Shown here one piece after another: positions 28,158 to 64,000 of a DNA stretch of 64,000 bases. The notes beneath the pieces were generated by a model. It ran no database searches and was not told the DNA's origin. It saw only the letters and a list, made by a program, of their open reading frames with translations. The DNA comes from Dudresnaya verticillata. Its lineage: Eukaryota. The stretch spans positions 1,860,001-1,924,000 of the forward strand of contig OZ374563.1 of assembly GCA_977862235.1 (NCBI GenBank), read 5' to 3'. The translations under genes were made by a program, and so were the position numbers. Within the stretch, counting starts at the first letter, position 1. The number at the start of each line of letters is the position of its first letter.

Positions 28158-28640
28158 GTAAAGACCCGAAACCCACCGTGGGTTCTATTCAGGAGGCCCC
28201 TGCTGCTCAGGGGCCTATTAAGTATACAGAGCCGAAAATTCTCCTACCTCCTATGAGCTATTCTAAGTATTCTAGCTGTAATTATTAATCTAATTGTACT
28301 GTTGTCAGTTATAAATACGGATTAGTGGTAGTACCGCGTCGAGCCGCGTGAGCGGCCACAATTAATTACCCAATGGCAATTCGCCATCAAATGTGGTGCC
28401 AGCAAGGACGCCAGCGAGGCGTGTAAGGAAGTGCCTTTTAGGTCTCTTGTGAACTCAAAGAGTGCACTCAATGAGAAAGCCACAGAGCGGGTACCTGGTA
28501 GCGGTGGTAGAGCGGGAGAGACCCAGAGGGTAGACGAGGGCACGTAACCGGATTAGAAGCACGATACTGAAGATAGTTCACTGGGCGGGCGGTTAACCGG
28601 GCACGGGTGACAAGTGTGCTGCGGTGCCGATAGCTTGGAG

Positions 28641-43030: not shown

Positions 43031-45135
43031 GCCTTCATTGCGGGCGACCGCGGTAGCGGTGGAGGTGGTGGAAAGGGACGAGGCCCTTGGCGTGGTGACC
43101 TTGGCGTTTGCCTCGGAGCCTCGATGGGGTGGTTCAGTCGAGGTTGAAATTGAACCTGCCGATTTCCCCCTTGACTTGCGCCCAAATTTTGACGGGGATC
43201 CATCCGTTGCCCTATGGGCGGCCCGGCGGGCACTCGCTCGTTAGCGAACTCCGGCATTCGACCAACAGTCGCCAGCCACGCTTTTTGCTCGTTTGATAGT
43301 TGATGAAACTGTCTTCTTTTTAAAGTCTCAAAAGACTGCTCATCGGTTCGAGCTAAATGTGGACAGTTGGGCTTTTTATGGCCAGTGCCGTAGCATTCGA
43401 AGCAGATATCATTGGGTTGGTCTTCAACCGTCACCCACCCAGGGCGTTGTGTCCTGGTTGGCTGTGCCCAGGCTGGGAGCCTATTATTGTAGTTCTGCAG
43501 TACCGCGTCAACTTCACCGTGATACGGTTGGTCGTAGTAATATGTGTCGACCACGAATCCGATTGGATCGCTGTTGATGGTGGCGCTTCGTTAGCGATGG
43601 CAGCCACGACTGCGTCTTCGCTTTCCGCATCAGAGCCGCTGCTCTTTGAAGTATCCGAATCGGAGGCGGATGCATCCTTCCCCTGGCGAATTAGGAGCGC
43701 CCGTCCTGACTTGTGGGTACGAACCTTCTTCAAGGTCTTCCTTGGTAGCGTCCTATTCGCTTTTGGCGTTCGTCCGCCACCTACTAGCGCCCGATGGGAA
43801 TCTCCCTGTGCAGTCGCAAGCTCGACGTAATCCGCCAGTCTGGCAGTCCTTGGATCCAAGGACGACGTACTTAAAAGCGGCTTCACCGCTGGTAGCAAAC
43901 CCCGAATAAACCTGGTTATCAAATCTTGTTCGGTGTATACACCAGCGACTCGACGCGCTTTGTTCTGCAACCTTCTCGAAAAGGTCACTTCGTCCTCATC
44001 GGGCTCCTGTGCCATTGTGTCCATCTCAGAGGCAATCCTCTCAATATAGACGTCCTTGGCATATGTTCGAAGAAGGTAATTCACGGCTTCGGGCCATTCG
44101 GTGAAACCACCATTGTCGTCACCCGCAGCGTCAAAATTCGCTTCAAACATATCCTTCGCATCCTTCTCGAGGAACTCGGGGATGACGAGGATAGCGGCAC
44201 CTTCGCTGATATGAGCTTGATCGAGCTGCCTCTTCACCGTGGCTAAGAAGCCAATAATTGACACCGGGTCACTCCCGTCAAAACGGCGACTCCGCATAAC
44301 GGACTTGACACGTTTGATTTTCTTCGTGGTCGTCTCGGTCACCTCGGGCCCGCGGTAATCATCCAGGTTCAATAGCCTATATCTTCTATAGGATAGCACC
44401 TATATGAAGGCGGGATTCCTAGGAGTCAGCTCCTTAACATCGGAACGTCGGGGACCCCTCCAGGAAGACCACGAAGGTCTGGTGTGCGAACGGGAACCCG
44501 GTCCTTCTGCATCCGATGGACCTGGATTAGGGTGAGACCCTGACCGAGGATTCTCTTCGTGACGATGATTCGAATATCGGTCACGATGAGAATCCACTTG
44601 CTCGCGGTGCGCGGAAGACCCAATTGGTCTGGTGCACTGGCAACCCTGTTGGCAACGGCCTCCATCCCCTTCACCTCGGGACCGACTGTCCGACCCCCTA
44701 TGGGGTAGCCTCCTACGCCTGTCGCGCGTGCCGCGAGGAACCGGTGAGCGTCGTCTCATGACTTCAGGGACAGTGTCCCTTTCGCGGATTACGCGCCGCA
44801 TCTGTAATTCCAGAAAAGCGACACAACGCTTCTCCTCATCGAGTTCTTTCCTTAGGACCTCGATGGCTCTGTCCTGTTCAACGCACCGTGCGTTGTCTAC
44901 GTTAAATTGAACGTCCGCAATAGCCATTGCGGCTTCTGTCCTGGAAAGGTCGGCAGCCTTCGTGGCTTCATCTAATTCAAGATGAACCGATTCCAACTGG
45001 TCCCCCATTGAGTCCACTTGGGCTTGTAGGGTCTCGACCCTTTCCTCTTCTAAACCCCTCAAGGGGCGTTTTTGGCAACGAGAAGTGACCATGTCTTGGC
45101 ACTTAGCCAGTAGCTGGTCGTCTCGACGAGCGGTC
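43021..45135 (-). pseudogene. gag of element C, 5'-deleted and fused to the truncated 5' LTR
   Basis: FDGSDPVSIIGFL and CFECYGTGHKKPNC (CCHC). Homology to the gag fragment at 56.9 kb stops abruptly at the LTR junction near 45135; no PBS remains. Confidence 0.8.
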
Positions 45136-45136
45136 C

Positions 45137-45620
45137 CCAGCTCGCACAGAGCAACCGTCGTGTGGAGGCAAGGCTCGTAAAGCACCTGAAAGGGAGGTTA
45201 CGGTGAGTCCGTGAATCCCAGAAAAAGGGTAAAGACCCGAAACCCACCGTGGGTTCTATTCAGGAGGCCCCTGCTACTCAGGGGCCTATTAAGTATAGAG
45301 AGCCGAAAATGCTCTTACCTCCTATGAGCTATTCTAAGCTATTCTAGCTGTAATTATTTATCTAATTGTTCTGTTGTCAGTTATAAATACGGATTAGTGG
45401 TAGTACCGCGTCGGGCCGCGTGAGCGGCCACAATTAATTACCCAATGGCAATTCGCCTTCAAATGTGGTGCCGGCAAGGACGCCAGCGAGGCGCATCGCC
45501 CTTACAGCGCACAGTGCTTGTGCGCGCCTTACAGCTTGATGCGCGTGGGCGTCTTACACCTTAATGCGCACAAATGACTTACAGTGCGCCAGCACTTCTG
45601 CTGCGGCTCATTCTTCCACA
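45137..45620 (-). repeat. Truncated 5' LTR of element C
   Basis: Matches the split 3' LTR pieces; starts TGTGGAAG on the minus strand at 45620. Confidence 0.88.
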
Positions 45621-48251
45621 CTTAGGGTAATGTAGTATAGACGTCGGGTCGATCCGAAGTCTGATACTAGCTGGTCCGAAACCGCCACACAGACCCGTCG
45701 ATGGGTAGCTGTTGGCGTTGGTAGAGCGGTGTCGGCCGCGAACACAGATTTCCGGGTTTTCAGAATCTGTGTTCCGAATCAGTCGGAAAAAAATGTTAAT
45801 GGAATGAATATTTCTATATTGCGTTGGACTGGGGAGGGGGAGCTGAGAAGAATGGTGGAATCAGTTTTGGGATAGCATGCACGGTTGCGGAGTTACAGCA
45901 TGCCGCATATACGGGTAAATGTCCCCGAAACTTTCGTGAAAGTTTCGAAACTTTCGGAATTTCCGAATTAAAATTTATCCAGAAATTGAACTGCCGCCTG
46001 CTGCCCTCCCGGGCGCGCCTGGCAGCGCACCGACGCTCGTGCTTCAGCACGCTTGGCCCCGCCCGCCGCATCTCCGCCCCGCCCTGAGCTGTGTTCAAGG
46101 GCGCAGTGTCGCCCCGCACGACTGGTACTGCTTGGCCTCCAGGGTAAATCTGGAGTATCCCAGTCGTGCGCGGCGCTCACGCACTCACGTGCTGGTACCA
46201 GTACCACCCCTTCCCATGCCCATCATTCCACTCCAAGGTCCACTGCGGCGCGCTCCTCGCGCAGCACCTCCTCCCCGCATGCCATATCGCATCGGGTATC
46301 AACCCCAACACGCCCCGCCGCTGCCAATATCCCCACCTCGCCGCGCCTCTGCGAATAGGCGGCTCCCTCTTGTATCTACCACCCGCCCTCACTGCGACCT
46401 CCAGTCGCGCCGCCATGCGCGCCAGCGAGTCCACCAGTCCGAAGACTATGCCATCATGACCACGCGTGAACGGCAGGCTTCCCCGGCTGTGCAGAACGCC
46501 ACATCTTGGATTTTCATCACTATGGACCGCTCAAGTGCGGCACTGCTGCTGGCTATGTGCCATGGGATGCCTTTTTGCGTTGCGTCCCGTTTATCGGACC
46601 AGTTGCGGGTGTCCCGGGCGCATAATTTGTGCTGGATGAGCTCATACGTGAGCAGGTCGGGCGTGATGTAGGGTACGAGGCGTCAGCAGCCTTCCAGGAC
46701 TGCACACAGAACGGCTCCACCTGTTCAGAGCGACAGATAACCAGACGTCTCCAGAAGAAGCGACGAAGCGCAGTCAAGCCGTTGCAGCGGGCTTGCGCCT
46801 GCGACGACCTTTTCAGTGCATGGGTAGTGCCAATAGTGATGGTGCAAGTCACAAGATACGTCGTTTCACAGTGATCTGTTTCCTAACTTGGTAAATCTCT
46901 ACCTTAGCCGGAGGTACCAGGTCTTTTTTCCGCGGTTGGCAGGAATCGTTATGTCGTAAGGTTAGGGGCCGTCGCAGATGTGCCCACGACAGAGATACCT
47001 GCCTTGATGCGCGCACGCATCTGTCATGGGCCTCTTCAAGTACATCTAAACTTTGAGGAGAAGGCAGCCATTAATGGGGTATATGTTCTTCGCTGGGAAG
47101 AGAATGTGGGAGCAGGTTCAACCTTCCGAAATTTTCGCCAAGGGCGTGAAGCGGATCCGGCAAGACCCAACCCTATCCCAATACGCGGGTATGCTCATGC
47201 GGCAATTCACAGAAAGGCAGTGGCTGCTTTTGTTCAGCCTTCTCGAATTCATAAAGCAGCAGAAGCGCAACAACTGGGCTCATATTACGGGGGAAATCGT
47301 AGCTGCCCACAAACTCCGCGTACAGTTGGGCTTTTGTAGCTCGCGTCAAGTGATACACTAGTTACAACCACAGCAGTCTCATGTGTCGGAGCTTAGCGTC
47401 AGTTCGGATACTGCAGCCGAAACCGTCATGGTTGGTCGGGAAACATCAGAGATTCGCATCCTTACTTACGCACGCAACACAGACTCATTCGGAACGAGTC
47501 ATCTACGCCACTTCTGTCAGTCGCGGCACATACCACTACTACCCGTTTCCCATGGCTGAGGAGAGCAACAAAGAAACAGGTTTCCATGACCTTGCTGCTC
47601 TTCTGGCATGCCGAGCGGAATACCCAACTACTCAACTGGTACGCAGACACAGCTGTGTTGGAAATTTTATTGTGCGTCACTATTGCAGCGAACGGCCTAG
47701 TACACTACGTCCCAGCGTCCCTCTTCTTCTTGCAGGCAGCATGGATTGGGGAGACTACATGCAAACGGCTTGGACTCGCGATGGGACACACGGAGTCGGA
47801 GGATGCGAAGCGACGCCGAGCCAATCTTCTCGCATTTGCTGCGCAAGCTCATGATACAATCGCCGCAGCTCAGAATGTTCTTGGGAGGTTGAACAGAGAG
47901 CTTGGGAAAGTGCAGTGCTTATTCCTTTGGGGTTCTGGAGAATGGCAAAGCCGGGGTGCAGTCGGGGTGCTAGGATGTGCAGGCCTCATTTTGCTTGCAA
48001 TTCCATCGCAGACGCTGTTTTGTTGTTCTTATTCTTCATGTTCTTTAAGCACTTCCTGCCCCCTACCAGTCGGCAATTGAAATATTGGCAGGCTTTCCAT
48101 CCCTTCGTGGATAGAATCGCGACTGAAGACAATCGAGAAAGGAGTTCATTAAAGACATAAGGTTGACTTCCCATTCTGTCTCAGTAAATTTACTCAACCC
48201 CGTTTTCTACTCTATCTATTCATTGCTATCACTGACATTCTCTCTACACGA

Positions 48252-48560
48252 TTAAATCCTCTTCTTCTTCTTCGCTGCTAAGGGGTTCGTGCAGCTCCAC
48301 AGTTCCGCGGACACCGAACAGACAGCTCTGGCGACAGCTGTCCTAACCGCCGTCGCTTCCCGCCTCAAGTGGCGGTAGCAGTGCATGAGGAATTCGAATT
48401 CCTCCATGCACTCGCGAGCCTCGCTTAAACAGCGCTTGACGATGTCGTGCTGGGCGCGAACATCGATGCGAAGTAGTACCACTTCTTCGTAGGCTTGTCG
48501 GATTGAATTGCGGTTCATGGTCGATGTTGGCTGTGCACGGGGAGGGAGGTCGACTTCCAT
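48252..48560 (-). CDS. Small helical orphan protein with C-terminal KKKKR
   Basis: ATG-initiated 102-aa ORF with amphipathic composition; no recognised family. Confidence 0.35.
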   Translation of the reverse strand: MEVDLPPRAQPTSTMNRNSIRQAYEEVVLLRIDVRAQHDIVKRCLSEARECMEEFEFLMHCYRHLRREATAVRTAVARAVCSVSAELWSCTNPLAAKKKKRI

Positions 48561-49066
48561 CTTTAATACTGTGGACTGTGGACTGCCGCAGACAAAGCCG
48601 GTCGCCTGGTGCGGTGGGAACCAGTACCTGAGCAGGGGTGGGGGGCGTCAAGTCAGCAGATAAGTGCTAACAGTAATGGAATGCCTTTGCTGCTCATCTA
48701 CACGAGACGTCCAAGTCCTGCCATTCGCTTTGCCCTTCGCTAAAGGCAATGTTTCATTGCGCCAATGCCTCGGTCTGTGCACCCTGCACCAGAATATGCA
48801 TGCGTTGGACGTCCTCGTGAAGGAATCGGGCATGCTCGTATGTCACTGTGATGTCGTCACAGTTCATTTCTGGGGATGCAGATACCTCATACTAGGTAAA
48901 AGTTGGACAATGCAGTGGAAGAGGATTTCTGGGAGCCTTTAATATCTGGGAAGAGGAAAAGAACCCCTGATATCTCAAAACAAGGAAACGACAGACTACC
49001 CAATCGTTACTACCTTTTTTCTTGGTGTTAGTAGTAGTACTGCTGCCAATACCTTCACGGAGCGCC

Positions 49067-49630
49067 TCATTCGTACATTCGAGTCAAATTGTTGACCTGA
49101 ACTGTGAGATGCCTGACTTGCAGCAACCGGATCTCCCTTGCGGTGTTTTCATTCATCTCTACATATCTGGTCTTGATTAATAGACGGCAGAACCGGTCCA
49201 AATGAAAAACCTCTTCTCCAGCCCTGTGGACTGTCTCAGATGTATAAGATTCCAGTAACAGAGCATTTTCCCCTGCATAGCTTCCCTCCTTCACCATTCG
49301 GACTTTTCGGCGTAGTAGGCGATACAATTCGCTAAGACTCCTTGTCTCGTGTCTGTGGTTTCGCGCTTCAGCGTGCGACAGATTCTGGCAGAAACGTTGA
49401 AAAGCTTCACTGTCCCTGCCCTCGACCAGTTCGATGCCTGATTCACTCAAAGCTTCGTGAGCCCACTGCCTCGACTTTCGGGCCATCTTCATGGACAAAC
49501 TCCCGTCAAGCGTTTTGAACATGGCATCAAGGCGATCCTCAATTGACTCGTCCTGGCATTTTCCATCGAATGGTGCCCCGTCGCGATCCACGCTAACAAT
49601 AGACATGGTTGGTGAAATGTTTGGTTGCAT
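49067..49630 (-). CDS. Orphan protein (about 187 aa)
   Basis: Protein-like composition from MQPNIS; no recognised family. Confidence 0.45.
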   Translation of the reverse strand: MQPNISPTMSIVSVDRDGAPFDGKCQDESIEDRLDAMFKTLDGSLSMKMARKSRQWAHEALSESGIELVEGRDSEAFQRFCQNLSHAEARNHRHETRSLSELYRLLRRKVRMVKEGSYAGENALLLESYTSETVHRAGEEVFHLDRFCRLLIKTRYVEMNENTAREIRLLQVRHLTVQVNNLTRMYE

Positions 49631-50433
49631 AGACGAGGAGCGCTTTGTGCAACATGCAGCAGTATCCTTGCTGTAGCAACTATGTTTTATATGACCCGTA
49701 AATCCATGTCCACGATTTTTCTGCACAAGAATGTTACGAGGAGCAAACGGACCGCAACAGTTGCGATGTTGTATTGGCGGGAAGTGCTCTGTGTCTGACG
49801 CACACGTTATTATAGTATTACGGATGTTGTTGGATGACGAACACGGGTTAGAAAATGGAATACTATGCGCAGTTACGCCACTGTACGGTTTTAACGGAGC
49901 GGGGTCTCTTAGGGACAAATAGGGGTCGAGACGCTTGACCGTATTAACGTTATGCCTGTACGGTTCCTATTGTACACCATGACCATGGATGGCGCTGAGG
50001 CCCTCACGAATTATTTTTATAGCAGGAAGTGTCTGCTGAATCAGCAGGGGTCGTTGGGGTCGTTCCCGGTTTATCTGCACAGCTCAATACCACGCGTAAA
50101 TTATGATGTCACCTGACTAATAACGTAATATACTAATCAAACTGTTACGAAGACGACGGAAATTGAGCCACAATACGACGATGCTAGTACATAAACTGAT
50201 CCCGTCACCCTGCTGTAATCCGTCAGAGGATCCAGAGACTGTCGTCCGAGTAGTAGACGTACTCGTCGCCATGAAACAAAATTGTCCTATACTGTTCCGT
50301 ATGATGAACGCAGTCGTTCTAGTACAGGAGCAGTGAAATATTGAATGTGATAGTAGTCAGAAATGGTTGGGTTGTACACTCCCACTATTAGGACACAGGA
50401 AATTGAACTTTATCAAACTGTTGGCTAACGCCA

Positions 50434-50976
50434 TCACTCCAATGCTTCTTTCAGGTCTTGTAGCCTTTTCTTCAAGAATGGCACATGAACGCAGCACCCG
50501 GTGCTTCGTCTAATCAGGTTCGCTAGGCGCCGCGGATTTTCCTCGGACTTATCTCCCTCACCATCCATAAATCCACAGTGAGGGCCCTTCCATAGGTCCA
50601 GCAGAGTCAGCCTTTCTATCCGCCGCCGCTCATAAAATTTCTTTCCTCTGTAACTGAACTTATAGTTTCCGTCGAAGTACTGCTGAGAGACGGAGAAGTC
50701 TGCACTTTCAATTGCGCTGACGCCGTACACCCTTTCATGAAACGCTTTGAAAATAGACGTGTCATAGAGACGTATTCCTAGCTCTTCCAACCCGACGATA
50801 CGCATCTGACGCTGTCTTGCCCGACTGACTATACCCACAAACCTCTCCTCTCCCATACGCTTGACTGCCTCCTTTAAGCTCTCTCCTCTCGAGTTCTTAA
50901 AATCGTTTAGGTTCAGGGTCTCCCCTTGTGAGTTGTCGACTTCTTCTCTCCCTCCAGAAGCGTTGTGCGACGACAT
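50434..50976 (-). CDS. Orphan protein (about 180 aa), divergent from the ParB-MTase gene
   Basis: aaaATG start and protein-like composition; weak resemblance to the 49067 ORF. Confidence 0.45.
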   Translation of the reverse strand: MSSHNASGGREEVDNSQGETLNLNDFKNSRGESLKEAVKRMGEERFVGIVSRARQRQMRIVGLEELGIRLYDTSIFKAFHERVYGVSAIESADFSVSQQYFDGNYKFSYRGKKFYERRRIERLTLLDLWKGPHCGFMDGEGDKSEENPRRLANLIRRSTGCCVHVPFLKKRLQDLKEALE

Positions 50977-51710
50977 TTTTAACAGTAGTACTCCACGGAA
51001 TAGGTGCAACCTCTGGGCATTCGCTAGAATGAGTACGGGTGGCTGTGAAGCGCCTGGTTTCGAGATTCCAGCGCTCATGATTTGTGCACAAAAGGGTGGA
51101 GAGTCCGACTTTAAGGGTGCAGGCATTTCTGCACAAATGTACAGAGAGGCATCAAGATACGCAGTGTCACCATAGTCACCCGAGACAGTTTCGGTTGGTT
51201 CCGAGTTGGCGCCAACGCGTGGTCTAACCTTGAGTGTGGATAGGAGCTCAATCCAAATTGCTATACCTATACAATCGTATGACCTGCGACTCGCAGCCAT
51301 GCGCATGATTTGGTCGTGAATATCTCGCAGCCTGTTTTTCGGGTAGCATAGGACTACTGTACGGACTGCAGCCCGGATCTCTGTTGTACTGCAGACCCCG
51401 CATAGTAGTCACATCCTGGTCGGGTTTCGCAGTCCTGAGACTGGAGAGTTTAGTACCGAGACTGTAGCATGTATCTGTCCACGATTGGTATGAGCAAAAT
51501 CCATGCACAAGCGGATGAGGTCAATGACAGCGGCTGAGTCACATGGTTTTAATTTAATGCATATTCTTTCTCTCATGCAGTGGGAAACGTTGTACATGCA
51601 TGTATGGGGCAAGGGCGGAAAGCTGTGTCCGACAGAGGCAGTAGTCAGAATTCATTCAGACATCCCATCCAGAACTTCGGCTTACCGGTGCACACGATAG
51701 ACTGAGAAAT

Positions 51711-54643
51711 ATGCCACCGAAAAAGAAGAAGGCAGTGGCGGTGAGGTCTGTATCCAACACAGGACAGACCTCAGCAGACGTAAGAGTGCCTGTATCATCT
51801 GGGAATGATAGAGTTCTGTTCGGAGATGTCGTTAATGGAGCTACGCACAAGCGAGTCGACCCTCGTTCATGTGTCCCGTTGACCTACGTCCGCCCGATCT
51901 GCAGATCGGGCGTCGAGCGATTGAAGCGCATTTTCCGGGGGACCGACCGGTACAGTTCAGGGACATTGAAGTCTCCCGTGGAAGGAGCTCCGGACTCTAT
52001 CGGTTACGTGGCTGGTAGTGATATGCCTGTCGTTGTGCCATTGACAGGGGCATTGAGAAGCCGTGTGTCCGATTATTTCAGGTCACAAACAAGGAAGGAC
52101 TGTACGCGTCGTTCCGAGAAAGAAGTTCAGGACATTGTGAAATCGAGGGGGAAATGGTACGGAGTAGTTGATGGAATGCATAGATTGGCAGCTATTCGTG
52201 AGCTGCTTGAAGAAAACTACAACCAGTGGAAACCCTTTGACTGGCCTGTGCTGGAGCTGAACCCGCGGACCGACGTAGTCCTGAAGCAATTCGCTCGACA
52301 TCAGAATCGTAAGCACGATGCAAACTGCTTCGTGGAAACTACCCTGTATAACACATTGAAGGGTCTGAAAGATGAGGCTGATCGCCTTCAAGCGGAGGGA
52401 AATGGTATCAAGCCGACAGCAAAAGCGGTTGCGTCCGCTTACGATGGGGTGCTCATATGCACGAGAACACAGTGAGGCAGACAGCGCAAGTAGCTCTCCG
52501 ACTAAGTCATCGTGTCATCGATGCGATAGGGGAGATAATGGGGGAAGAAATACCGTAGCTTTCATTGGCTTCACGAAATGGAAGAACTGCTAAATCAGTA
52601 GCAGACGATGCCCTGATGTCGTCGATGGACTGCCGGGATTTCCGGAAGTTTATTACTCTGAACTCACTGAAGGCTGCCACAGAGTTCATGCGTGCGGGCC
52701 AAATGAGTGGCGTGGTACATGATGAGGGTGTGGAAGTCCAGGTCTCGACACTCTACCGCATTCGAGAAGTATGCAGGAGGAACGGGTTCAGGCCCGTTCT
52801 TTACGGGGTCACCAAATCAGAGTTCGGGAAGGCTAAAGATGCGCTAGCAGAGGTTCGCAAAGTCGAAGGCCTTCGTGAATCTGAGGACTGGCCGGGTCCC
52901 ATGGACACGATGCGGACAAATCTTCTGCGATCCGAAACGTTTGATGGCGATATCATGCTTAACAGGGGCAACGACACATTGATTTTGCAATGCATTCTGG
53001 ATATGTACAAGGACTGCTGTCCGGAAGACGCACCCCTGAAGATTCACAAGTACCATTCTGTTAGAGATAGGAACAGAAAGGAATGCGATGAAGAGAAGAA
53101 TTTAGACCGGGAGTGTGTGAATGAGATTACGACTGGAGTGCAAGATTCAGGGGGGGTCAATTCCGATCAGGTAACAACTGCTGGAAACAAGGACCATCCC
53201 TCTGACGGACAGATCGAACACGATGACGTTCCCTCTCCTTCTGTGAACGTAGATTCGTTACCTTGCAGTCGAGACCTCGGTTCTCCCGGAGACCATCACA
53301 ATCATGATGCAGAAGATATGCAGGGATCGGCTGTAAAATCTGCTGTGACGGTGAGCACGGAAAAATCGGAAAGGCTGGCTGTACGTGGGGACAAGCACGG
53401 ACCTGACGACCATTTGCAAGCTGATATCTTGAAGTCGTACAGAATAACCTGCCATCAGATGCGGTGGCAGGTATACAATAAGAATATTCGCGAGGGTGTT
53501 GGTGATCTATACGACATAGTTCTTACCGACACACCGTATGGAACGCCTGAATCACAGTCTGGTGCAGGGAAACACTACGACAACTATATGAGTGATTCTG
53601 AAATATCCGAGCTTGCAGAAATGTGCAGGGAATCCGTTGTACCGGGAGGGTGGGTGTTCATGTTCGTGTCCTACCAGACATTCGAACCTATAAGGCAGGC
53701 TCTTCTGAAGGCCGGATTCACTTGCCCAACGTACGCCTTTTCGATTGCGAAGGATACACACACGGTGCAGGAGAGGCGAGGAAATGACTGTCCCCAAAAT
53801 GGCCACGAAATTGCGGTCATGGGAAGAGCCCCAGGACAACACCCCAACGGATTTAAAGTGGATCTTCGAAGCCCATATCAATTAGTGAAGGCTTCGGAAA
53901 AGAGAAAGTTTGCGTGCATGTCTCAAATTCCCGTTTCTAAGAAGAAGCTCCTTAAACCGGGTACAAAATCCCCGGTGCCTACTGAGGAGAAGAATGTTTA
54001 GCTTTTGGTGGAATTGTTAACGACCTTCTGCCCTGAGGGGGGGGCCATTTTGGACATGTATGCTGGAACGATGACAGCTGCAATTGCAGCCGTGCAGACT
54101 GGTAGGAAATGCACCTGTATAGAGCAGAGCCTACAGACATACAGGCTTGCAGTTGCACGCCTGAAAAGGATAGCAAGTGATCATCGCAAGTTGTCGGAAG
54201 GAATGGAAGGAACACCATTGTGCCATGGTACAGCGGGAGAGGCCCTGGGAGAAGACCAGGGAGCGGATGTGGAAAACCCGCAACAGAAACTGCTCAGGAA
54301 TGAGGCGAAGAAGAATTCGGATTGTATCACTGGCGGCGATGCAGTTGTTCTGTACGTTGGGAAGAACGCTGTTGGGAAGGCAAAAGTCCAATTCGGGGCA
54401 AGTCCTGATGAAAACGTTCGCAAGCAGATTCATCTGAAACCCCTGTCGGAATACGAAAAGCCAGGACAGGAACTCGTTGCGGTGTACGCCTTCGAATGTG
54501 ATTCATCCTTTGCCACCTCAGCATATCCGTATAACTTTCATGTCCCGAACGGCCGCCCTTCCACGATTCTAAGTGAGCTAGACGGATTTTTTGCATGGGA
54601 TATCCATGCGATGAAAGCCCAGGAGCGGTGCGACCAGAAATGA
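51711..54643 (+). pseudogene. NLS-ParB/Srx-HTH fused to a beta-class N6-adenine/N4-cytosine DNA methyltransferase plus a C-terminal Tnp1/EnSpm-like domain (about 975 aa if repaired)
   Basis: MPPKKKK; ParB motifs MPVVVP and YGVVDGMHRLAAIREL; HTH-like TAKAVASAYDG..ENTVRQTAQVA; motif IV YDIVLTDTPYG (53528-53539); PTEEKN; motif I ILDMYAGTMTAAIAA..GRKCTCIE. Lesions: frameshift near 52450, TAG at 52556 and TAG at 53999. Confidence 0.82.
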
Positions 54644-55105
54644 GGGTAAAGCAGAGTTGAGCACAATAATCGTTCGCTTCACTAGTTTCCTACGCCATAG
54701 CGCAATATCGTAAGCCATAATCACATGCTACTCCTCGCTGGAGACACTGTACTGCCATCGACAGTGCTATCCCGGTAGAAGTCCACAGCGCAAAAGTTGC
54801 ATCATCGCTCGGTCCCATTTCCGCAGCAACGTCTCTTTCACACTGTCGAATCTGCAGAGTTCCATCGAATTATAGCTCTTGCAGAGCATGGGATGAATGT
54901 CGAGCGGCATGGAAGATCTGCCAGCAAGCATCTACAGGAATGATGCATCCACGGCCCCGGTAGAGTAGTAGTAGCGAGGCGGGTCGGGTCACAGCACGGT
55001 GAGAATACCGAGAGCTTCGATTTGCAGGTAGGTGCACTCGAGCAATACACTTGCGTCTCATCGCGGGACGAGTGCCCGTAGTTCCGAAATTACTGCAATC
55101 GCGTG

Positions 55106-55390
55106 AAAACCTATCCAATATTATGGAGAATGACCAACAGCTTTTCGGAAAGCCGCACGTAAATTTCTATTAAACAGCACATACACTGTACGAGATCTAA
55201 AAATCTATGATAGGTTTTCCGAAACGTGAGTGCTCATGTGCTGTTTAATAGCTTTTTGAATCTCACTAGTCGAAAAGCTGTTATAGGTTTTGCGATTGCC
55301 TCGGGCCAAACACCTTTTTGATAGAAACTACGTTTGATCGACCCCAGGACCTATTCCATATTATGGAGAATGCAAGATAGCTTTTCAGGT
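55106..55390. repeat. Cluster of short direct and inverted repeats
   Basis: ATATTATGGAGAATG twice; AAAACCTAT/ATAGGTTTT; AACAGCTTTTCG/CGAAAAGCTGTT. Confidence 0.7.
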
Positions 55391-55900
55391 CGCGCGGCAT
55401 AACTCTCCAGGATTTTTTCCACAAGATTTATCGCTGATTCCCTTCTGGGACTTTTCTTTCGGAACACCTGGGTCCCTCCACCCATCCGGTTGCTGCCCAG
55501 CGCCCTCCCAAACGCAATCGCAACCGAACCGCCGCGTTTCGCTACAACCCCCTCCCGCCCGCCCCCCGCGACTGGCGCCAGGTCGCGCCCCACCGCACCC
55601 CACCGACCCGCACAACTACTGTGCTTCCCGTCGCACTTCCGCACCACGCCCCCGAAGCTGCATTGGGGCCTTTTTATGCGTTGCGTGCAGTCCAGATGGA
55701 AAGAATATCTCCCCGAGCGGTGAAGATGATCTGGTTTCGATCTGGTGCAGAAAGTTGTGCGAACACGTCTGGTCGAGGGTGAGGTGCTCTACATAGGAGT
55801 ATACAACTTTCATCAATTGCCGCCTCTGTGATTGATGCACCAGCGACCGCATTTTGGTCAGGGCGGCTTGTCGTCGCCACAATTCTCGGTTAGGGTTTAA

Positions 55901-56621
55901 ATGGAGGTATTCCCATGCGTTTATCGCCGTATGGAGCGCTTTAGGGGTCGCGCCACGGAAAGCTTGCTCGCGAAGAAGAAGCTGCGATACTGTACGCCTC
56001 GCAGTGGCCAGGAGCAATGGGAGATAGGTGTTACTTTTCTATTGCTACCGTTCCTGCTGATCACGCTGACCTTGCTCACCATCGTCGTGTGCGTCAGCGT
56101 GTGGGCAAGCGTGTTCCGACGGCAACTCTTTTGAAGTTATTCACGGCCACCCGCCAGAGGAGGCCGGAAGCGGCTCTGCTCGCCGGGACAAGCTTTCAGA
56201 AACGGAGGTGAACGCCATGTTTCCCTCCTTTGTCTTCACGAATGGTGAAACGGCCGCGTTGGGGGCGACCGGCGATGTGTGCTGCTCGGTGTGCTTGTGT
56301 AGCTTTGAGGAAGGGCACATGCTGCGGCGGCTTGCATGTGGACATTGTTATCACTCGACGTGCCTGGACCAGTGGCTGTTGACGAATGCAACGTGCACTC
56401 GATGTCGAAAGTCGGCAAGGATCAACGGTGAGGCAACACGGTATTCGTGGTTCTCACGGCGGGTGTTTTCTCGTGTGTTTGGCAGTATAAGGTTCCCAAC
56501 CAGATTGCTCCCACCGTTCTTGAAACCGCGGGGGAGAGACATTGGGCTGTACGAAACAGTAGAGACAGAGGAGTTCTTATCGGAAAGCGATTTGTCGAGG
56601 CTCTTCGGCCCGGGTCCATGA
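55901..56621 (+). pseudogene. TM + RING-H2 (ATL-like) E3 ubiquitin ligase, frameshifted in a T-run near 56130
   Basis: TM segment FLLLPFLLITLTLLTIVVCVSVW; LSETEVNAMFPSFVF; CSVC..CGHCYHSTC..W..CTRC. The 5' boundary is uncertain. Confidence 0.75.
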
Positions 56622-56896
56622 CGTGACGGTTGGGTGCGAGCATTGGCATTTTTGTGATACACATATAGAGCTATTTATTACTCACGGGACGCAGAATCGT
56701 TTTCGCAACAGGGTTGGCTGAGAAAATAGACAGACGTACCAAAGGCTAGAATGAGGACAGAAGAGCCCCCGCTGACATCGGGGAGAATGACGGTTCAGGC
56801 CGTAGAATGATGCCGCCGTCCCTGGCGTTAGTCAGTGTTCAAGCTATGGGCGGATGAGCCCAGAAAGAAGAAACTCCGGCAACCCCGGACGAAGGG

Positions 56897-57912
56897 TTGC
56901 CAATTCGAACGAAGTATCATTCGTCTGATATCCGATGTTTCACGGAGCGCGAGATTGGACGAATGATCGAATTAGGCATCGAGAGATCCTTAACGACTAG
57001 CGTCGTGGCACTGTTGGAGAGCCAATCCGATGATAACTTTTTAAAGGTCAAGAGGTACATTGATGAGGCATCCGCGCGCCACGATGATCGCCTCCTGGCG
57101 AGGTGTCAGCAAGAGATTGAATCTCGAGGTCGACCAGGTCCTCCCAGAGGATTAGACGAAGAAAGGGTCGAAACCCTGCAGGCGCAAGTGGATTCCCTCG
57201 GGGACCAAGTGGATACCGTCCAAGAGGAACTACAGGCGCTCAACAAGGTCACAGACCTAACAAGAACAGAAGCCGTAATGGCTATACAAGACGTTCAACG
57301 GAACGTGGACGACACAAGGTGTGTCGAACAAGATCGAGCCATCGAGCCCTTACGCAGAGATCTCGATGGAGAAAGACGGAAGGTCGCGTTGCTAGAAGCA
57401 AAGATGAGGCGACTTAATCTTGAAAGGGATTTAATCCCTGAAGTCGAACGACGACGCTCCCCTGTGCCTCGAGGCACCAGGGACCGTCGCAAGATGCCAC
57501 AGTCTCCGCGACGTGACTCGGGAGGGGAGTCTGGAAATGGCGACTTTGGTCGTGAAAGGACGGAACACCCTCGGTGTGATTGCCGGGCGACACACGTTTC
57601 CAACGTGGGCGCAGCCGAATTGACTCACGTCAAGACCGGTACTCAAGCCGCAAGGCGGAAGATCAACGCCGAAGTAATTCCTACCCTGCTCCGAAACACT
57701 CGGATGAAGATGAACCCACCTCGCGAGGTCTTTCCCGACCGTCAAGGAGCTCTGGGAGAGGCCCACGTCGGACGGGACCCAAGGAGTTGGCTCCACGAAA
57801 CCCTGCCTTTGTACAGGTTCTTTCGTACCGACGCTATCGGTTGTTGAATGTCGATTCATATCGAGGACCGGAAGTAACGGAAGCCACGTCCAAGAAGATT
57901 AAACGGGTTAAA
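56897..57912 (+). pseudogene. Truncated gag fragment related to element C
   Basis: RGLDEERVETLQAQVDS, RRRSPVPRGTRDRR and LSYRRYRLLN..YRGPEVTE..KKIKRVK are near-identical to the 43.4-45.1 kb proteins; no LTRs seen. Confidence 0.85.
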
Positions 57913-57954
57913 TACGTAACAGACACAGGACAACGCTGTCGGGAACGCGGGATG

Positions 57955-58727
57955 TTTTGCTCTTGCAGCCTGGGCTGCGGTCTGAGGGGCATCAGTCATC
58001 GATTCATCCGCCTTCAGGCCCGGAAGCTCTGCAGAGACGATGAACTTGACGCCGTCCTTGCCGACAACTTTGATACAAAAGCGGGGCTGGTTGATGACGA
58101 GACGCTTCTGGACCTCAGCGATGCACTTGCGAATGACCACTAGGTCATCGTTCAAAGTCATATTCTTCTTCCAATAGCGATCAAGCGTCGATAACACAAA
58201 GTACTGTGCATACCCTTCCGCGGCGAAAGTGAGCTTATGTAGCGTACCGAGGTAATCGCACGAATACAGCGACGGGCCGTCGCCGTTGGGCAGTGAGTCG
58301 TACCCCGCGATCATGACATTGCACTGATGCGGCGCTTTTCTGCTCGCAACACACGGGAAAACATAAGCAGGAAGAAAGGTTAGAGCGGTGACCTTCTCGC
58401 GCAATGGGACACGCAAAACGAATATGCATCCGCGGTATCCCTTTCGTAGCTGAGGAACTTGGCGAGCTCGCCGCGCGTGTAGTTCGCGACGGCAGCGGTG
58501 GACATGGTGATGCCAGAGCGCAGGTTGTACAGTCTGACGTCCTTCTACACGTGTTCGGTGAACTTTGCAACGTCTCCGGCGACACCAGCGGCGGCGAAGA
58601 GTTTGTACTCGTCGAGTGCGCGGATCTTGTCCATGTCCTCCTTCATGAAGACGACGGACCCGGCACTGGCAACATCTGCGGCAATAACAACGAAGTCGCC
58701 GCCCTGCAGCGCGATGATCGACTCCGT
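57955..58727 (-). pseudogene. PSMB2: Proteasome subunit beta type-2 (beta-4/PRE1) pseudogene with retained intron
   Basis: (ACG)ESIIALQGGDFVVIAAD..MKEDMDKI..V*KDVRLYNLRSG..ANYTRGELAKFLR / KAP..NVMIAGYD..PSLY..DYLG..GYAQYFVLSTLDRYW..CIAEVQKRLVIN. Start ATG>ACG, internal TAG, and an intron (about 58340-58450) with donor GT>CT, CTAAC branch point and CAG acceptor. Confidence 0.9.
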
Positions 58728-59049
58728 TGTGGATTTGCAGCGGGGCGATTGGGGTGTGGCTAGGCTCGAATGCTGATGGTGTTGGCGGGGCGGCTTGGGG
58801 CAGGCGATTTGATGGAGGGGGCGGAGGTTCCAGCGCGTTCAGGCGCAGCGCTGGATCGCCTTGGCATTGCAGTGCCTGACGTGGATCGCGCCTTACAGAA
58901 TAATCTCGAGTTGCTATTCGCCGCGCAGCCCGGAGCATCCACCGAAACGAAACACGACCAGCATCGCACGCCTACTCGCGTGCTTCGCATACCATCCCTT
59001 CCTGCTCTATGTCCTGCTTCGTGCCCAACCTCCTCCGCTCCAAACCACC

Positions 59050-59214
59050 ATGTCTGCCCTCCTCTCCCCGCCGCGCCCGGTGCGCACGCGCTTCAAAGTA
59101 CCGGGCGAGGGCGCATATGAGCTATGCACGGAGCTGCCGCCACCGCCAACTCTCCCACCGCCACCCCCCAAAACGCCCGCTACGCCAACCCCAGCCACGC
59201 CCCCACCTGGCTAG
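59050..59214 (+). pseudogene. 5' fragment of a gene divergent from PSMB2, possibly WDR20/DMWD-like
   Basis: accATG, then MSALLSPPRPVRTRFKVPGEGAYEL, resembling the N-terminal 'T.F...EG.Y.L' motif of WDR20-like proteins; truncated after a Pro-rich stretch. Confidence 0.35.
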
Positions 59215-59682
59215 TGACATCTTGCGAAGGGAAGGAATCCTCGGGACTTAAAAAGGCGTCAATGCTGTAGCGTTGCGGCAAGCAACGAATTGGGGATCTC
59301 ACTTTCGGTTCTGCAGAGTTAACTCTGGTCCATCATCCGCAGGAAGGATGGCGTCTTTTGATAGTATCGCAAGGTATCATACTATTCAATCACTGGCAGA
59401 CTCACCTCTGGGCTCGTTCAACACAATGGGAGAGAGAATTTTCTCAGCCTCATTGCACTCCTGCAACTCCCGTGGCGTGTCGGGAAAGCTCCGAGTACGG
59501 GAATCTGCAGTTAGAAGAACGGGGCGGCGGCTTTGGAGGAAAGAAAGGCGGACGCGGTGTGGTAGAGGGGCCCAGCGGAAAGGCAACCTAGATGACGCGA
59601 GAAACGGCTCGGGTCGTGACGTGCGCTCAGAAATCTTTACTAATGGCGGCTACCGTGACATGGAGGTTCCGGAACAGATCTT

Positions 59683-60215
59683 CTAGGATTCGGAGCGGGA
59701 GGATCGTGGGCTGGATTGGGCCTCCACAGATGTCATCACCGCTTGTAGGGCAAATATAGCCTGCGATAAAGCCAATGTTATACTGCGATGGACCCGATGG
59801 AAGACACTGCCAACCATGCGCAGAGCCGCTCGCTGCAGACGGGCAACCAGCTGACGCAGCTCATCCTGAGCGCTCCTAAGTTGCTGGAATTCTTCTTCAA
59901 GCTCAACGAGCTGCGCTTCGACATCTTCAAGACTTATGTCTTCCGTTTGCATCAGGCTTGTTCTGTGACTTCAGACTCCTCGTTTCTGCGGGCAAGGTGG
60001 CGCTGCAAAGCCGCGATATGTACCCTTGCTTCTGTAAGTTTCTCCTGGATGAAGACAAGCAGACGGTTGATTTGGCACACAACTGGCCACCCTAGTCGCT
60101 GAAGCTCACGCGACAAGTACGATACCGTCACCCGAATGGTCCTGATCTCCCCCTGTAGTGTTGCTATTCTCTCCTGAGCGGAATGCAGCCTCCCTTCTCT
60201 TGTCTCTTGATACAT
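59683..60215 (-). CDS. Two abutting small coiled-coil ORFs (87 aa and 89 aa) joined by a TGATG overlap
   Basis: Heptad-rich sequences; the stop of the first ORF and the start of the second share base 59952. Confidence 0.4.
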
Positions 60216-60988
60216 GTTGTGCGTAAGGTAGAGTCTGGAATGTTTGTCTCACGGCGAACTTCAAATTTGCAGACTGGTACTTGATGCACAGGTTGGTGCA
60301 TGTTCGCAAACTGGTGAAAAGCCATCTGTAGCCCACGGCAGCTCATTGGATTGACTTGTCCTTCTTCTGCAAGAAAAATCACGGGGTATCGAGACGTAGA
60401 CACCAACGCAGCCGGCAGGCGGGGTCTTACTTCTCAGCCCCTCTCGATGCTATTTCTTATCCTTGACGCCCATCAGTATTACCCGCTTGCGGTCGCATGG
60501 CGGAATAGAGCAGTCTGCAGGGCGTACCCTTGCAATACAGAGTACTGCTTCTTGATTGACAGGGACTCGAGATTCGCGACTTGTCCGTTCTGATTGGTAA
60601 CATGGCACGCTCGTCTCTCGAATCAGACTGTTTTGTTCGCACTGGCGCTATAGTGTATGGCGGAATGGAGTGGTGCATACAGAGCGAGAGGGAAGCCCTT
60701 CCAATACCAGTCGTTTTAACTGGGATCCGTAGCAACTGTGGGCATGCGCAAGCCTGTCATGCAGAACGCCCCACCGCCTCTGGAACAGTATTATATCGGT
60801 GACGTTTCAGAAGCGCCCTCGCCGCTCCCGAGTATTTCAGCTCTTCAGAACAAGTAGCGCACAGCTATCGCGCCCTAGCGGGAACATCGATTTTGTTGCT
60901 TCACTTCGCCCGCCCTGAGTGCAAGGAGCATCTTGCACTAGTGAATTGCAAAAGGCTCAGACTCCCCTGCCGAAAGGGGTAGTAGGGC

Positions 60989-63900
60989 ATGGCCCAAGCC
61001 TCATCTGGGCAGGTTTCGAAAGCAGCAAACGTTCCAGTTCAGAATGACGACGATTTCGGCGATGAGCTGCTTCCCGGAACAAAGCCCGGCGCACGAGTCA
61101 TGCTCACTCTCAACGGGGAAAACGTTGCTACAGCAACCCTGCTACGACCTCATGATTTTAGGGAGGGTGCCGTTGATCCCAGTGGTCGATTCACCACATA
61201 CCTGCACGGGCGCAACCTTGGGCCTCAACAACGTGATGGAGAAGTATGGGTTGTAGTTCACCTCGTGCGATTCCTCCACAACTGCAATTCCTACGAAAAC
61301 CCGTTCCAGTACAAACCAGGCAGTACGCCTTGTCCGGAGACACTGAGTCGAATGCAGACTGGAAAACATGCCTGGGACCTATTCCAGATTGAGGATCTCG
61401 TAACCATCTACGATACAGAGCGCAGAAAAAGCTCAGGTGCGACTGTCTCGGCAGTGGAAAAACGTGCGGTGGCTGACGCTAACCCACCAACACCCCCTCT
61501 GCTCAGGGTTCGCAAATCCGCTCCTCACCCAAAAAAGCAGCATGGTGCGGAAGAAATGGCAGCGGTTAACAGCCCTTCAACACCACCGCCAGAGAAAGTC
61601 AATGAAGAGGAAGATGTCACAAAACTTCTGCAATACACACCTGTACGCCGGCCCCCTATGCGTGAACGACCCCAGAAACCACCCAAGAATAACGTCCCGG
61701 GCGCCTTACCAGTCTCTTCGGCCCCAGTGTCTCTTGAACCCACGACTACACCCTTGGAAGAGAGATCCTCGTGTAGGCGTGACAGACAGAGGCGATGCAG
61801 ATCTGAAACAAAACTCTACTAGTGCTGTCGGATCTATTCCTTCTCGAGGAAAAGGAGCCAGCGACGAAGAGAACTGTATCACGCCCCAGCCATGCCCTGC
61901 ACACAATGTCAGACGTACGCCTGAAAGCAGTTCGGGTTTTAGTAGTGGCGCACCAGAACCCGACCCTGATGCTACCCCGGCGTTGGCCGCGATCACTAAC
62001 ACAAAGGGTGACGTGGAACGAACGCCAGGTGCTGATGGCTCGGAAATAGAGCATGGTGAGGAGCAATCAGATGCTGTGACGTTGGATCTGGTGAGCGACG
62101 CAGAAGTGGAAGGTGGAAGTGATGGAATATTAGAAGACGAAGATACTGGAAGCGACCAGGAAATTGAGGACCTCACCAAGGACGCAGATTACGTGCCAAG
62201 TGCGACAATTGCACGAAGACGCACGGCAGCATATGAGGCTGAACGGGTCCCGCAAACGCCCAGAGTTGCTGAGGATGAGACCAATGGCTCCCGAAAGAGA
62301 AGGTACCGCTTCTACGCAGGACAAAGAAAGAAGTTGAGGGTTGGTGATACTGCATTGCAAAAGCGTCGCAATGCTGCTCTGGAAAGGCTTGATGAAGAAG
62401 ACTGGGGCTCCAAGGAGTGCGGCATGCGGAAGCAATGCTTCAAGAGGGTATCTATTATGTACATGAAAGCCGAGATTCGCAAACTGTTGCGTATGGACGC
62501 CCATGATCGACGAAACTATTTGCACGGGTTGTTGCAGCGCCCGGGATGGAATTATTACTTCGACGGAAAGCCAGTATGCTACACGTTCCTGGAGACGGCG
62601 TTTGGGTTTTCCAGGGACCTGCAATATTCAGTCAAACAGTTTGGTGGAAGCCGGCCTATGGAGGGTGACAATGCCGTGCCGTATCAGCCTCCGAGTGAGG
62701 GCAGGGATAAGATACTAAGTTACCTCAACCGGCTTGCTGAGATAACAGCAAGCTGCATGCCCGACGCAGATGAGAAGCATCTGCCGTACTTTGATAAGGC
62801 TGCGGTCTACGAGAACTTCCTTCTGGACCAGGAGAGACTGTATCCTGGAAAAGACCCGCCTCGACTAAACTACTTCTACCACGTCTGGAAGCAGCACCGC
62901 AGTGACATAAAAGTCCGCAAAATCCAACGCTTCACAAAATGTTCGGAGTGTGAATAATTTCGTGCTGGACTTGCCAGGGCCGGTACAAACCGCAGACTTG
63001 CGGAGCCGTTCCTGCTCCGTAGAAAGGAACACTACAAGCTGGTTACAAAGGAGAGGGTGTACTACAGGGAGAATACGGAAAAAGCTACTTTGTATCCCTC
63101 CGAGTACTGTTCACTGATAATTGATGGCTCGGACCAGAAAGCGTTCGGAGTACCAAAGTTCGTGGTCAGCACGAAGGCTACGCGTGGACATTCCATAGCA
63201 AGCAAAGTTGTGGGCGCATTGGAACACGGTTCATTGAAGCACCTATCCCTGTTCGTCATGACAGGAGAGTTTGAGACTGGCGCAAATCACATAATCGAAA
63301 CAGTCCATCGCCTTCTCACAGTCAAGCATAACCATGGCACTCTGCAGCCTACGCTGTTACTGCAGCTAGACAACTGCACCCGGGAGAACAAAAATAAGTA
63401 CATGCTTTCTTACCTGGAGTGCTTAGTCGCGTGGGGTGTTCTGCATGAAGTGCAGGTTTCCTTTCTCCCAATCGGCCACACCCATTCCGACATCGACCAG
63501 GCCTTCAGTTGCACAAGCAAGAGGGTCCGATCAAAAGACATGCCGACCATGTCTTGCCTTCTCCGCGAACTAAGCATGCAATACACGCGTCGTCCATCGG
63601 TGGCAAGGTTGCTGCAGGTAGCCAACTTTTCCGGGCTGTGTGACAAGTTTGCGTGTATTGGCAAGAATGAAGCATTCTCACACTACAGATTCTTTAGAAT
63701 TACTCGCCAACGTGGGAAGGGAATGGGCAGAAAAGCGAGATTCCGCACGCGATGCCTCGTCAAGATTCAGTGTGGAGATGAGTGGAAACCTCTTGTAACA
63801 GAAGCACGTGGCAACTCTCTCAAACAGGAAGGCTTCATACTATTCACCCCTGACCTCGTTAAGACGCCAGAGACCATAGCGCGATGCCCACCTGATATGA

Positions 63901-64000
63901 AGGAGGTCAATGATCGCATACGTTGCACCGAAGTCCGAGCGCTCAAGGCGTCGCAGATCACCGAACTGGAAAATCTTAGGGATCACGTCTATAGAGATCG
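60989..64000 (+). pseudogene. Sola1/DUF7869-like DDD transposase with N-terminal Tnp1/EnSpm-like domain; frameshift near 61800, TAA at 62955; runs off the window
   Basis: RFTKCSECE; manual in-frame read-through gives CSLIIDGSDQ (D 63123), ETGANHIIE, LLLQLDNCTRENKNKY (D 63369) and SFLPIGHTHSDIDQAFS (D 63489/63495). Confidence 0.8.

Follow-up and report, generated by a model that had tools for sequence, protein, structure and literature searches.

Two genes of the window (the whole 64,000-nucleotide stretch that was analysed), one related to DNA methyltransferases (MTases) and the other to transposases, raise the question of whether the C-terminus of the first and the N-terminus of the second are the same domain, and of what such a domain would do in a mobile element. 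The features concerned are listed in Table 1, where domain A designates the MTase end and domain B the transposase start.

Table 1. Features of the window, in positions counted from its first nucleotide.
Feature	Positions	Strand	Score or remark
ParB-like (DGxHR) + N6/N4 DNA methyltransferase + shared domain, pseudogene	51711..54643	+	
Domain A, ~100-aa module at the MTase C-terminus, predicted SH3-like beta-barrel	54326..54628	+	pLDDT 93.5
9-mer AYAGVTTTT array, both orientations	55106..55385	.	8/9 of the window's matches
RING-H2 gene fragment	56070..56621	+	zf-RING_2 E 2.5e-9
LTR-retrotransposon gag-region remnant	56858..57918	+	
Proteasome beta-subunit pseudogene	57856..58727	-	
DUF7869 transposase pseudogene, continuing beyond the window	60989..64000	+	PF25273 E 1.5e-44
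Domain B, same module at the transposase N-terminus	61076..61399	+	pLDDT 88.0

Both the MTase and the transposase are pseudogenised in the present copy. The MTase possesses a frame break near 52450 and in-frame TAG codons at 52556 and 53999, and its pieces, split by stops, fall below the cut-off of N6_N4_Mtase (PF01555). This assignment is carried by the homologs (922-1003 aa when intact), which exceed the cut-off, have motif IV (DPPY) before motif I (DxYxG), and match PDB 8urk (E = 6.9e-9). The window gene shows the same motif order, that of the beta class, with motif IV reading DTPY as against DPPY in its six closest homologs; the motif is also degenerate in several MTase homologs. The putative ParB/Srx-like region contains the DGxHR motif, with no more than weak matches to DndB/DGQHR. 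The transposase is interrupted by a frame break between about 61400 and 61850 and by an in-frame TAA at 62955. Its core scored 152 bits against PF25273 (DUF7869; cut-off 26), the sole Pfam match at E≤0.1, and a canonical CACTA transposase was rejected, as neither CACTA TnpD/Transposase_21 nor Plavaka matched at that threshold. Domain B and the DUF7869 core lie in different frames; as P0008, the closest transposase homolog, and P0010 carry both in one polypeptide, B corresponds to the transposase N-terminus severed by the frame break.

Among the intervening features, the RING-H2 fragment probably represents captured or decayed host sequence, and the gag-region remnant shares 70% DNA identity over 356 nt with a gag-region ORF at 44705-45059. 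The proteasome sequence lying between the MTase and the transposase has ACG at its start codon, an in-frame TAG (58547-58545) and a probable retained intron; that it is an intact gene of the host was rejected. The 9-mer array region, whose pattern was chosen after the region had been viewed, additionally contains a 16-nt perfect inverted repeat and a 38-nt direct repeat, and is a candidate binding-site array or sub-terminal repeat.

In the window translation, A (54323-54613; CITGGDAVVL...AWDIHAM) and B (61079-61390; TKPGARVML...AWDLFQI) were both in frame. Their direct similarity was marginal (BLASTP E = 0.030, 21% identity over 61 aa; shuffle test p = 0.02 for local and 0.0044 for global alignment), and an unrelated ORF near 22349 outscored B against A in a pairwise scan of the window ORFs. 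An HMM was then built from the C-terminal 112 aa of six MTase homologs found in databases, to the exclusion of both window stretches. Run against 1258 window ORFs, it yielded 90.9 bits for A, 43.0 bits for B (E = 2.8e-12) and at most 5.1 bits for any other ORF; of 5000 shuffled versions of B the highest scored 7.2 bits, and reversed B -1.3. As sole query, B matched three MTase C-termini (E = 1e-12 to 1e-9). The MTase-class and transposase-class profiles aligned in hhalign with a probability of 99.9 (E = 1.8e-35), a value that is not independent, as the members were collected with a profile holding both A and B. The two domains share about 20% identity and do not form sister branches in the domain tree, B having more in common with MTase domains from other records (29-31%) than with A; concerted evolution of A and B was rejected. 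The profiles thus settled what the weak direct pair could not, and homology was accepted: A and B are confirmed, at the level of sequence, as diverged copies of one mobile module of about 100 residues. The original observation of a domain of this length common to both termini therefore stands on the MTase-only HMM, its pairwise alignment having proved weak for the direct pair and strong between profiles. A resemblance of two short beta-rich stretches that arose by chance or convergence would accommodate the direct E-value and the equally high pairwise scores of unrelated window ORFs, but is vanishingly improbable and was rejected in view of the MTase-only HMM with its low-scoring shuffles, the domain scores of ten transposase homologs (48-91 bits) and the common predicted fold.

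The module matched no named family in Pfam, NCBIfam, PHROGs and PDB sequence searches. Structural models obtained from separate class alignments showed a common strand order with high confidence for A and B (Table 1), so that the fold comparison also agrees with the expected kinship: both are predicted to be SH3-like barrels of the Tudor/PWWP/KOW class. Of the top 50 VIA entries, 35 were common to the two models and comprised KOW, Tudor, PWWP, chromo and Sm folds. The best structural match had a Z of 4.7 for A (rmsd 2.8, 52 aligned residues) and 4.2 for B, none reaching Z ≥5, with the top matches tied among Tudor/PWWP/chromo, KOW, Sm and PsaE; Foldseek returned nothing at E≤0.001 for the module models. 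About 50-60 core residues of both models superpose on KOW (5ohq), Tudor (6wau, 3lgf), PWWP (6kco, NSD2/3), chromo-barrel and Sm structures at an rmsd of 2.3-4.5, and no family stands out; unlike these barrels, the module has long loops inserted that bear YPY and PP motifs. The H, YPY and WD motifs are conserved in 102-123 of 129 domains, the residues conserved across domains being H, Y, Y, Y/F and W. Median net charges of -3, -3 and -2 in the three host classes described below make a peptide or protein ligand a better fit than naked DNA. Many SH3-like barrels have no reader role.

The spread of the module was searched with a profile of eight domains against 1.84 billion proteins (E≤1e-3), giving 201 proteins. 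Seven were dropped as false positives with long repetitive matches (P0135, P0161, P0164, P0191, P0199, P0237, P0242); five of them were checked and resemble bacterial repeat proteins. Among 168 proteins with the domain, the module was C-terminal in 40/40 MTase-class proteins (a count that includes near-duplicates) and N-terminal in 18/18 transposase-class and 10/10 ParB/oxygenase-class proteins, the other 100, mostly fragments, being unclassified. This third class consists of ParB-like/2OG-oxygenase-like proteins with a DGxHR region and, in all five full-length members, an HxDF/Y motif followed by HAG; it had no Pfam or PDB sequence match, and the middle of these proteins aligned with the MTase N-terminus (hhalign E = 7e-6). 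All 72 transposase homologs belong to PF25273, and only ten of them bear the domain. The domain is thus present on both gene classes outside the window as well, with most transposases (62/72) lacking it and a third class possessing it. None of 80 transposase loci encoded the domain in any frame, including those of the close clade (L001-L008) with ≤6 kb upstream. For domain A, a word-index search gave no match and an Atlas search nothing usable, while the Atlas DUF7918 clusters retrieved for B (scores below 0.9) were treated as noise. No relative of the MTase or transposase appeared in viral contig scans, nor any in a metagenome scan with the MTase alignment. The hosts of the related transposon proteins are likely seaweeds or other algae.

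In the domain tree, B, P0008 and P0010 grouped with the MTase domains and outside the principal transposase clade, which has 12 members. Well-supported branches force at least three changes in the presence of the module on transposases, and the best tree has seven. The tree suggests two independent fusions to transposases; a single origin of all transposase-borne domains was not rejected (AU p = 0.171).

Whether the two window genes belong to one element is a separate matter, and we consider it somewhat probable that they do in the present copy. No element ends, terminal pair or target-site duplication was detected in 44000-64000, the right end lying beyond the window. ParB-MTase genes do accompany DUF7869 transposases, and three transposases (P0014, P0023, P0038), all without the domain, are probably located on the same contig as a domain-bearing MTase. 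The four candidate same-contig pairs included no domain-bearing transposase paired to a domain-bearing MTase, and one of them (P0130/P0029, as a single 4334-nt contig) was rejected because the two genes do not fit. The view of A and B as co-evolved parts of one element is thus borne out as regards the joint travel of the genes, but not as regards the domains, given their low identity and separate positions in the tree.

The explanation we tentatively favour, at slightly less than even confidence, is that the module is a shared address tag, its ligand being either a chromatin mark or a single protein partner common to all carriers. It is fused to the methyltransferase, to some transposases and to a likely oxygenase, the elements probably being giant DNA transposons of algae. 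The ParB-like methyltransferase of an intact copy would place 6mA or 4mC on the DNA of its own element, for which it may load at the 9-mer array. Methyltransferase, oxygenase and any transposase fused to the module would be directed by it to the same chromatin, in a manner comparable to the guidance of chromovirus integrases by chromodomains. Self-methylation, the ligand, the algal host and the single element are all putative in this account. Its placement at a free end of three unrelated enzymes is consistent with an accessory module for targeting. The structural matches are unspecific, most transposases manage without the module, and the missing ends, the two broken genes and the degenerate motif IV of several homologs also count against an address tag.

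It is unlikely, by comparison, that the module is a self-associating dock through which methyltransferase, oxygenase and transposase bind each other and so assemble on the element as a single complex. In its favour, the same module is found on up to three proteins of one cassette type, oligomerisation is known for some SH3-like barrels (Sm, Tudor tandems), and the window contains both copies at a distance of 6.4 kb. The divergence of A from B, the three contig-sharing transposases without the module and the lack of linked domain-bearing pairs argue the other way, and docking of the MTase to the transposase, originally put forward as a possibility, is unlikely as an obligatory arrangement, the domain being absent from 62 of the 72 transposase homologs, those three included.

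Sequence-specific DNA binding, with the module recognising the 9-mer sub-terminal array, appears improbable. CACTA TnpA-type accessory proteins bind sub-terminal repeats, and the motif order of the module appears to resemble that of plant Transposase_23 (Tnp1/En/Spm, PF03017)/DUF8039, VA.G.V ... HG..L ... V.V ... P ... TL ... G ... W over a similar length. Neither A nor B matched PF03017 in Pfam at E≤0.1, and none of the 113 members scanned from the alignments (54 + 27 + 32) did so with E cut-offs of 1 or 10, in searches where the HMMER filters drop weak matches. The array, with its two orientations, follows the 3' end of the MTase at a distance of 0.5 kb and some KOW/PWWP barrels bind nucleic acid (6kco is among the matches), but the domains are slightly acidic and no such array was seen in L001-L008 or L010, although these loci lack the domain too. 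Recognition of the array would be explained more simply by the ParB-like region, in line with the proposal made for PAG3 (10.1101/2025.02.11.637652).

Equally improbable is that the module serves the cassette enzymes only, the transposase copies being an exon-shuffling by-product without shared function and the window genes perhaps separate insertions. The patchy presence, the grouping of B, P0008 and P0010 with MTase domains, and the 6.3 kb of decayed unrelated sequence and repeat array between the genes would agree with this. The retention of the core motifs in the transposase class across deep divergence, the possible single origin and the still foldable sequence of B (pLDDT 88.0) speak against it.

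By analogy with Sola1-1_Ec32, DUF7869 is presumably linked to Sola. Sola1-1_Ec32 is a giant DNA transposon of Ectocarpus with terminal inverted repeats and a 4-bp target duplication, and carries a ParB-like + N4/N6 DNA methyltransferase gene (PMC12477816, in the parts available). By description rather than by sequence, it resembles the window in combining such an MTase (about 1000-1100 aa) with a transposase in an element of >10 kb with broken genes and nested inserts; its MTase lies on the strand opposite to the transposase, whereas both window genes share one strand, and these parts mention no shared terminal domain. In red-algal Plavaka elements, PAG2 is an N6 MTase with SET and PAG3 a ParB-like protein with a 2OG oxygenase, inverted-repeat arrays lie beside the ParB gene, and the genes are mobile between TE families (10.1101/2025.02.11.637652, same limitation). 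The MTase and ParB/2OG-oxygenase cargo is alike, and our third class has the PAG3 layout (DGxHR, HxD...H), compared by layout rather than sequence. The window MTase differs from PAG2 in having a ParB-like region and a barrel but no SET, and the transposase is DUF7869 rather than Plavaka; the available text reports no shared module and contains no mention of 'SH3' or 'shared domain'. EpiLTRs and chromovirus integrases, according to the accessible part of 10.64898/2026.05.21.726589, join a chromodomain on the mobility enzyme with DNA methyltransferases in the same element. The small barrel on a mobility enzyme, here predicted and with a proposed reader role, together with a DNA methyltransferase, is similar, but those are retrotransposons with a known reader family, whereas here the element is a DNA transposon and an uncatalogued module occurs on three proteins.

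Giant DNA transposons of algae have thus already been described in publications as carrying ParB-methyltransferase cargo, and the portions of PMC12477816 and 10.1101/2025.02.11.637652 available propose that ParB-methyltransferase or ParB-oxygenase cargo modifies the DNA of its own element. They name no factor that would link the cargo enzymes with one another or with the transposase; a small module, predicted to fold well and present on all of them, offers a direct handle. A bolder and rather doubtful extension is that, in giant DNA transposons of algae, one undescribed reader domain labels the enzyme that writes DNA methylation, the 2OG oxygenase as its putative eraser, and also the transposase, and was repeatedly re-fused to transposases, coupling self-contained marking of the element's chromatin to transposition; the plant CACTA Transposase_23 module would then go back to this algal domain, which would also account for the function missing from that module. 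The address module itself may explain the plant module. The window copy is dead and its value is as a pointer to intact relatives, the module providing a marker with which such cassettes may be found across transposon superfamilies.

The likeness between the C-terminal domain of the window methyltransferase (MTase; domain A) and the N-terminal domain of the window DUF7869 transposase (domain B) was marginal in direct comparison (BLASTP E 0.030; shuffled controls p = 0.02 local, p = 0.0044 global). Both stretches were present in open reading frame, and an unrelated ORF near 22349 scored above the A-B pair in the pairwise scan. The read-through MTase used as a query retrieved seven homologs, six of them close, and the shared domain formed the end of all six close homologs. 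An HMM built only from these six database C-termini, run on the 1258 window ORFs, scored A at 90.9 bits and B at 43.0 bits (E 2.8e-12), against 5.1 bits for the next ORF and 7.2 bits for the top of 5000 shuffles, which upholds the original prediction of a domain common to the MTase end and the transposase start. With the same HMM, 10 of the 72 DUF7869 transposase homologs showed an N-terminal copy of the domain (48-91 bits), among them the top homolog P0008, so B is the transposase N-terminus, split off by a frame break; the other 62 scored below 2 bits. The module is real and absent from the domain catalogues searched, no family name being found in Pfam, NCBIfam, PHROG or PDB sequences. It may resemble Transposase_23/DUF8039, and DUF7869 may be linked to Sola.

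When 1.84 billion proteins were searched with an eight-domain profile (A, B and the copies from six MTases), 201 matched at E ≤ 1e-3. Of these matches 150 were taken up, seven repetitive false positives were removed, and the domain was present in 168 of 244 collected proteins, 100 of which, mostly fragments, fell in no class when classes were assigned from sequence outside the domain. It was C-terminal in all 40 MTases (near-duplicates counted) and N-terminal in all 18 transposases and all 10 members of a third class. The class domain profiles matched one another with probabilities of 99.8-99.9, their members having been gathered with a profile including A and B. Whole third-class proteins (1150-1380 aa) possessed a DGxHR region akin to the N-terminal part of the MTases (hhalign E 7e-6), with an HxD...H motif in all five full-length members, and had no match in Pfam or PDB sequences. 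Two proteins (P0118, P0204), possibly other architectures or fragments, carried the domain after a long low-complexity N-terminal region, with no recognised catalytic domain. P0007, a distant 795-aa protein with a ParB-like region and an N6/N4 MTase on a 15-kb contig, lacked the C-terminal domain.

The third class has the layout that 10.1101/2025.02.11.637652 gives for PAG3 (ParB-like region plus 2OG oxygenase), an accessory gene of red-algal Plavaka elements. ParB-MTase and ParB-oxygenase cargo of giant algal DNA transposons is already known from that paper and PMC12477816. A module shared with the transposase is mentioned in none of the passages covered from these two papers or from PMC6431247, PMC4738411, PMC12730594 and 10.64898/2026.05.21.726589; a literature search for DUF7869 returned no paper, and further searches listed none on the module.

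The predicted models of A (alignment of 54 MTase-type rows; pLDDT 93.5) and B (27 transposase-type rows; pLDDT 88.0) shared one order of elements: two strands, a loop bearing a short helix, then a long strand, another loop with a helix, and two strands. Foldseek gave no match at E ≤ 0.001, its weak rows being PWWP, CAP-Gly, LSm, KOW-type and small phage barrels. Among 48,161 chains, the best VIA scores were Z 4.7 for A (5ohq KOW, rmsd 2.8, 52 aligned) and Z 4.2 for B, with 35 of the top 50 entries common to both. Judged from strand order and common VIA entries, both models may be read as SH3-like at the core and enlarged by long inserts, and no one family stands out. Conserved among 129 domains were H (119), YPY (102/106/119), W (123) and D (116). 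Net charge had a median of -2 to -3.

The domain tree comprised 52 rows (14 near-duplicates, 65 domains without class and partial domains excluded) and its bootstrap had not settled. Twelve transposase domains formed one clade (99/95), A grouped loosely with P0084, P0097, P0005 and P0102, and B, paired with P0008 (98/84), was placed with P0010 among MTase domains; a single origin of all transposase domains was not rejected (AU p = 0.171). In the transposase tree (84 rows, one short homolog left out), the 14 domain-bearing rows needed seven changes, at least three on strong branches. Some transposases lacking the domain may be truncated gene calls; in eight loci with transposase homologs (L001-L008) it was found in no frame of the DNA covered. 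A and B are only 20% identical, whereas B shares 29-31% with P0002-P0004; concerted evolution is therefore rejected, and the proposed co-evolution of the two found no support.

The window is repeat-rich eukaryotic DNA in which host-like genes, poor in introns, stand beside several remnants of LTR retroelements (see table). Gene style and the agreement with published algal elements suggest a florideophyte red alga as the host. Intact MTase relatives measure 922-1003 aa; the window MTase is broken by a frame change near 52450 and by stops at positions 52556 and 53999, and its motif IV reads DTPY. The transposase has one frame break, a stop at 62955, and continues past the window end. Both are likely non-functional, although sequencing error could have caused the breaks.

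Features in the window
Feature	Position	Strand	Remarks
MTase gene	51711-54643		ParB-like region, N6/N4 MTase, shared domain
Two long ORFs, 299 and 324 aa	49067-51408	-	Divergent from MTase gene; neither ORF clearly matched Pfam, NCBIfam or PHROG; possibly additional cargo genes, e.g. PAG1 equivalent
9-mer array	55106-55385	both orientations	0.5 kb downstream of MTase; 41% GC, A+T-rich
Proteasome beta-subunit pseudogene	57856-58727	-	Probable intron retained; abuts gag-region remnant; read as genomic duplication or captured host fragment
Two adjacent short ORFs, 95 and 98 aa	59683-60248	-	Coiled-coil-like; divergent from transposase; Pfam matches weak, coiled-coil only
Repeat, 96-98% identical	45136-45621		Pieces at 27150-27247, 28158-28421 and 34296-34428 flank retroelement ORFs (28948-33540); probably LTR pieces
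Long unassigned ORF, 836 aa	22156-24666	-	Beside Gypsy-like element; W-rich middle region similar by eye to that of the 555-aa ORF; possible extra ORF of adjoining retroelement
Long unassigned ORF, 555 aa	35384-37051	+	As for the 836-aa ORF

That both genes belong to one element, as originally proposed, is moderately probable. By exact length and source of the carrying contig, 4 of 17 MTases agreed with one of the 72 transposases (about 0.06 expected). Three pairs have room for both genes (P0005/P0014, P0117/P0023, P0111/P0038), and P0005 and P0014 sit in the tree groups holding the window MTase domain and window transposase, respectively. This indirect test can mislead, since the fourth pair (P0130/P0029) could not fit on one contig. 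Gene order at locus L010 also favours linkage: there an MTase + SET gene immediately precedes a DUF7869 transposase in the same orientation. The L010 genes (1332-9466 of a 9.6-kb metagenome contig) lack the shared domain and comprise an N6/N4 MTase of PAG2 layout and a distant transposase with CA/TG-rich introns, and so the cassette may reach beyond red algae. Against one element, no terminal repeats were found around the window pair, and the 9-mer array could be an element end. The array holds eight of the nine window matches to a pattern chosen post hoc (1.9 expected window-wide), together with a perfect inverted repeat of 16 nt and a direct repeat of 38 nt. In favour of one element, only broken pieces were found between the genes (RING-H2 fragment, gag-region remnant, proteasome pseudogene), resembling the nested inserts of giant Ectocarpus elements described in PMC12477816.

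Of the possible roles, a shared address tag is the one we tentatively favour, at somewhat under even chances. A self-associating dock, an idea suggested originally, is unlikely; the three plausible linked pairs, whose transposases all lack the domain, speak against an obligatory dock. Binding to DNA of the 9-mer array and passive spread by shuffling are each still less probable. As an address tag, the module, a slightly acidic barrel at the protein end in which aromatics are conserved, would recruit its carriers (a writer, a probable oxygenase and some transposases) to one chromatin mark or partner as its putative ligand. Loading at the repeat array would fall to the ParB-like region, and marking of the element, presumably by self-methylation, to the MTase.
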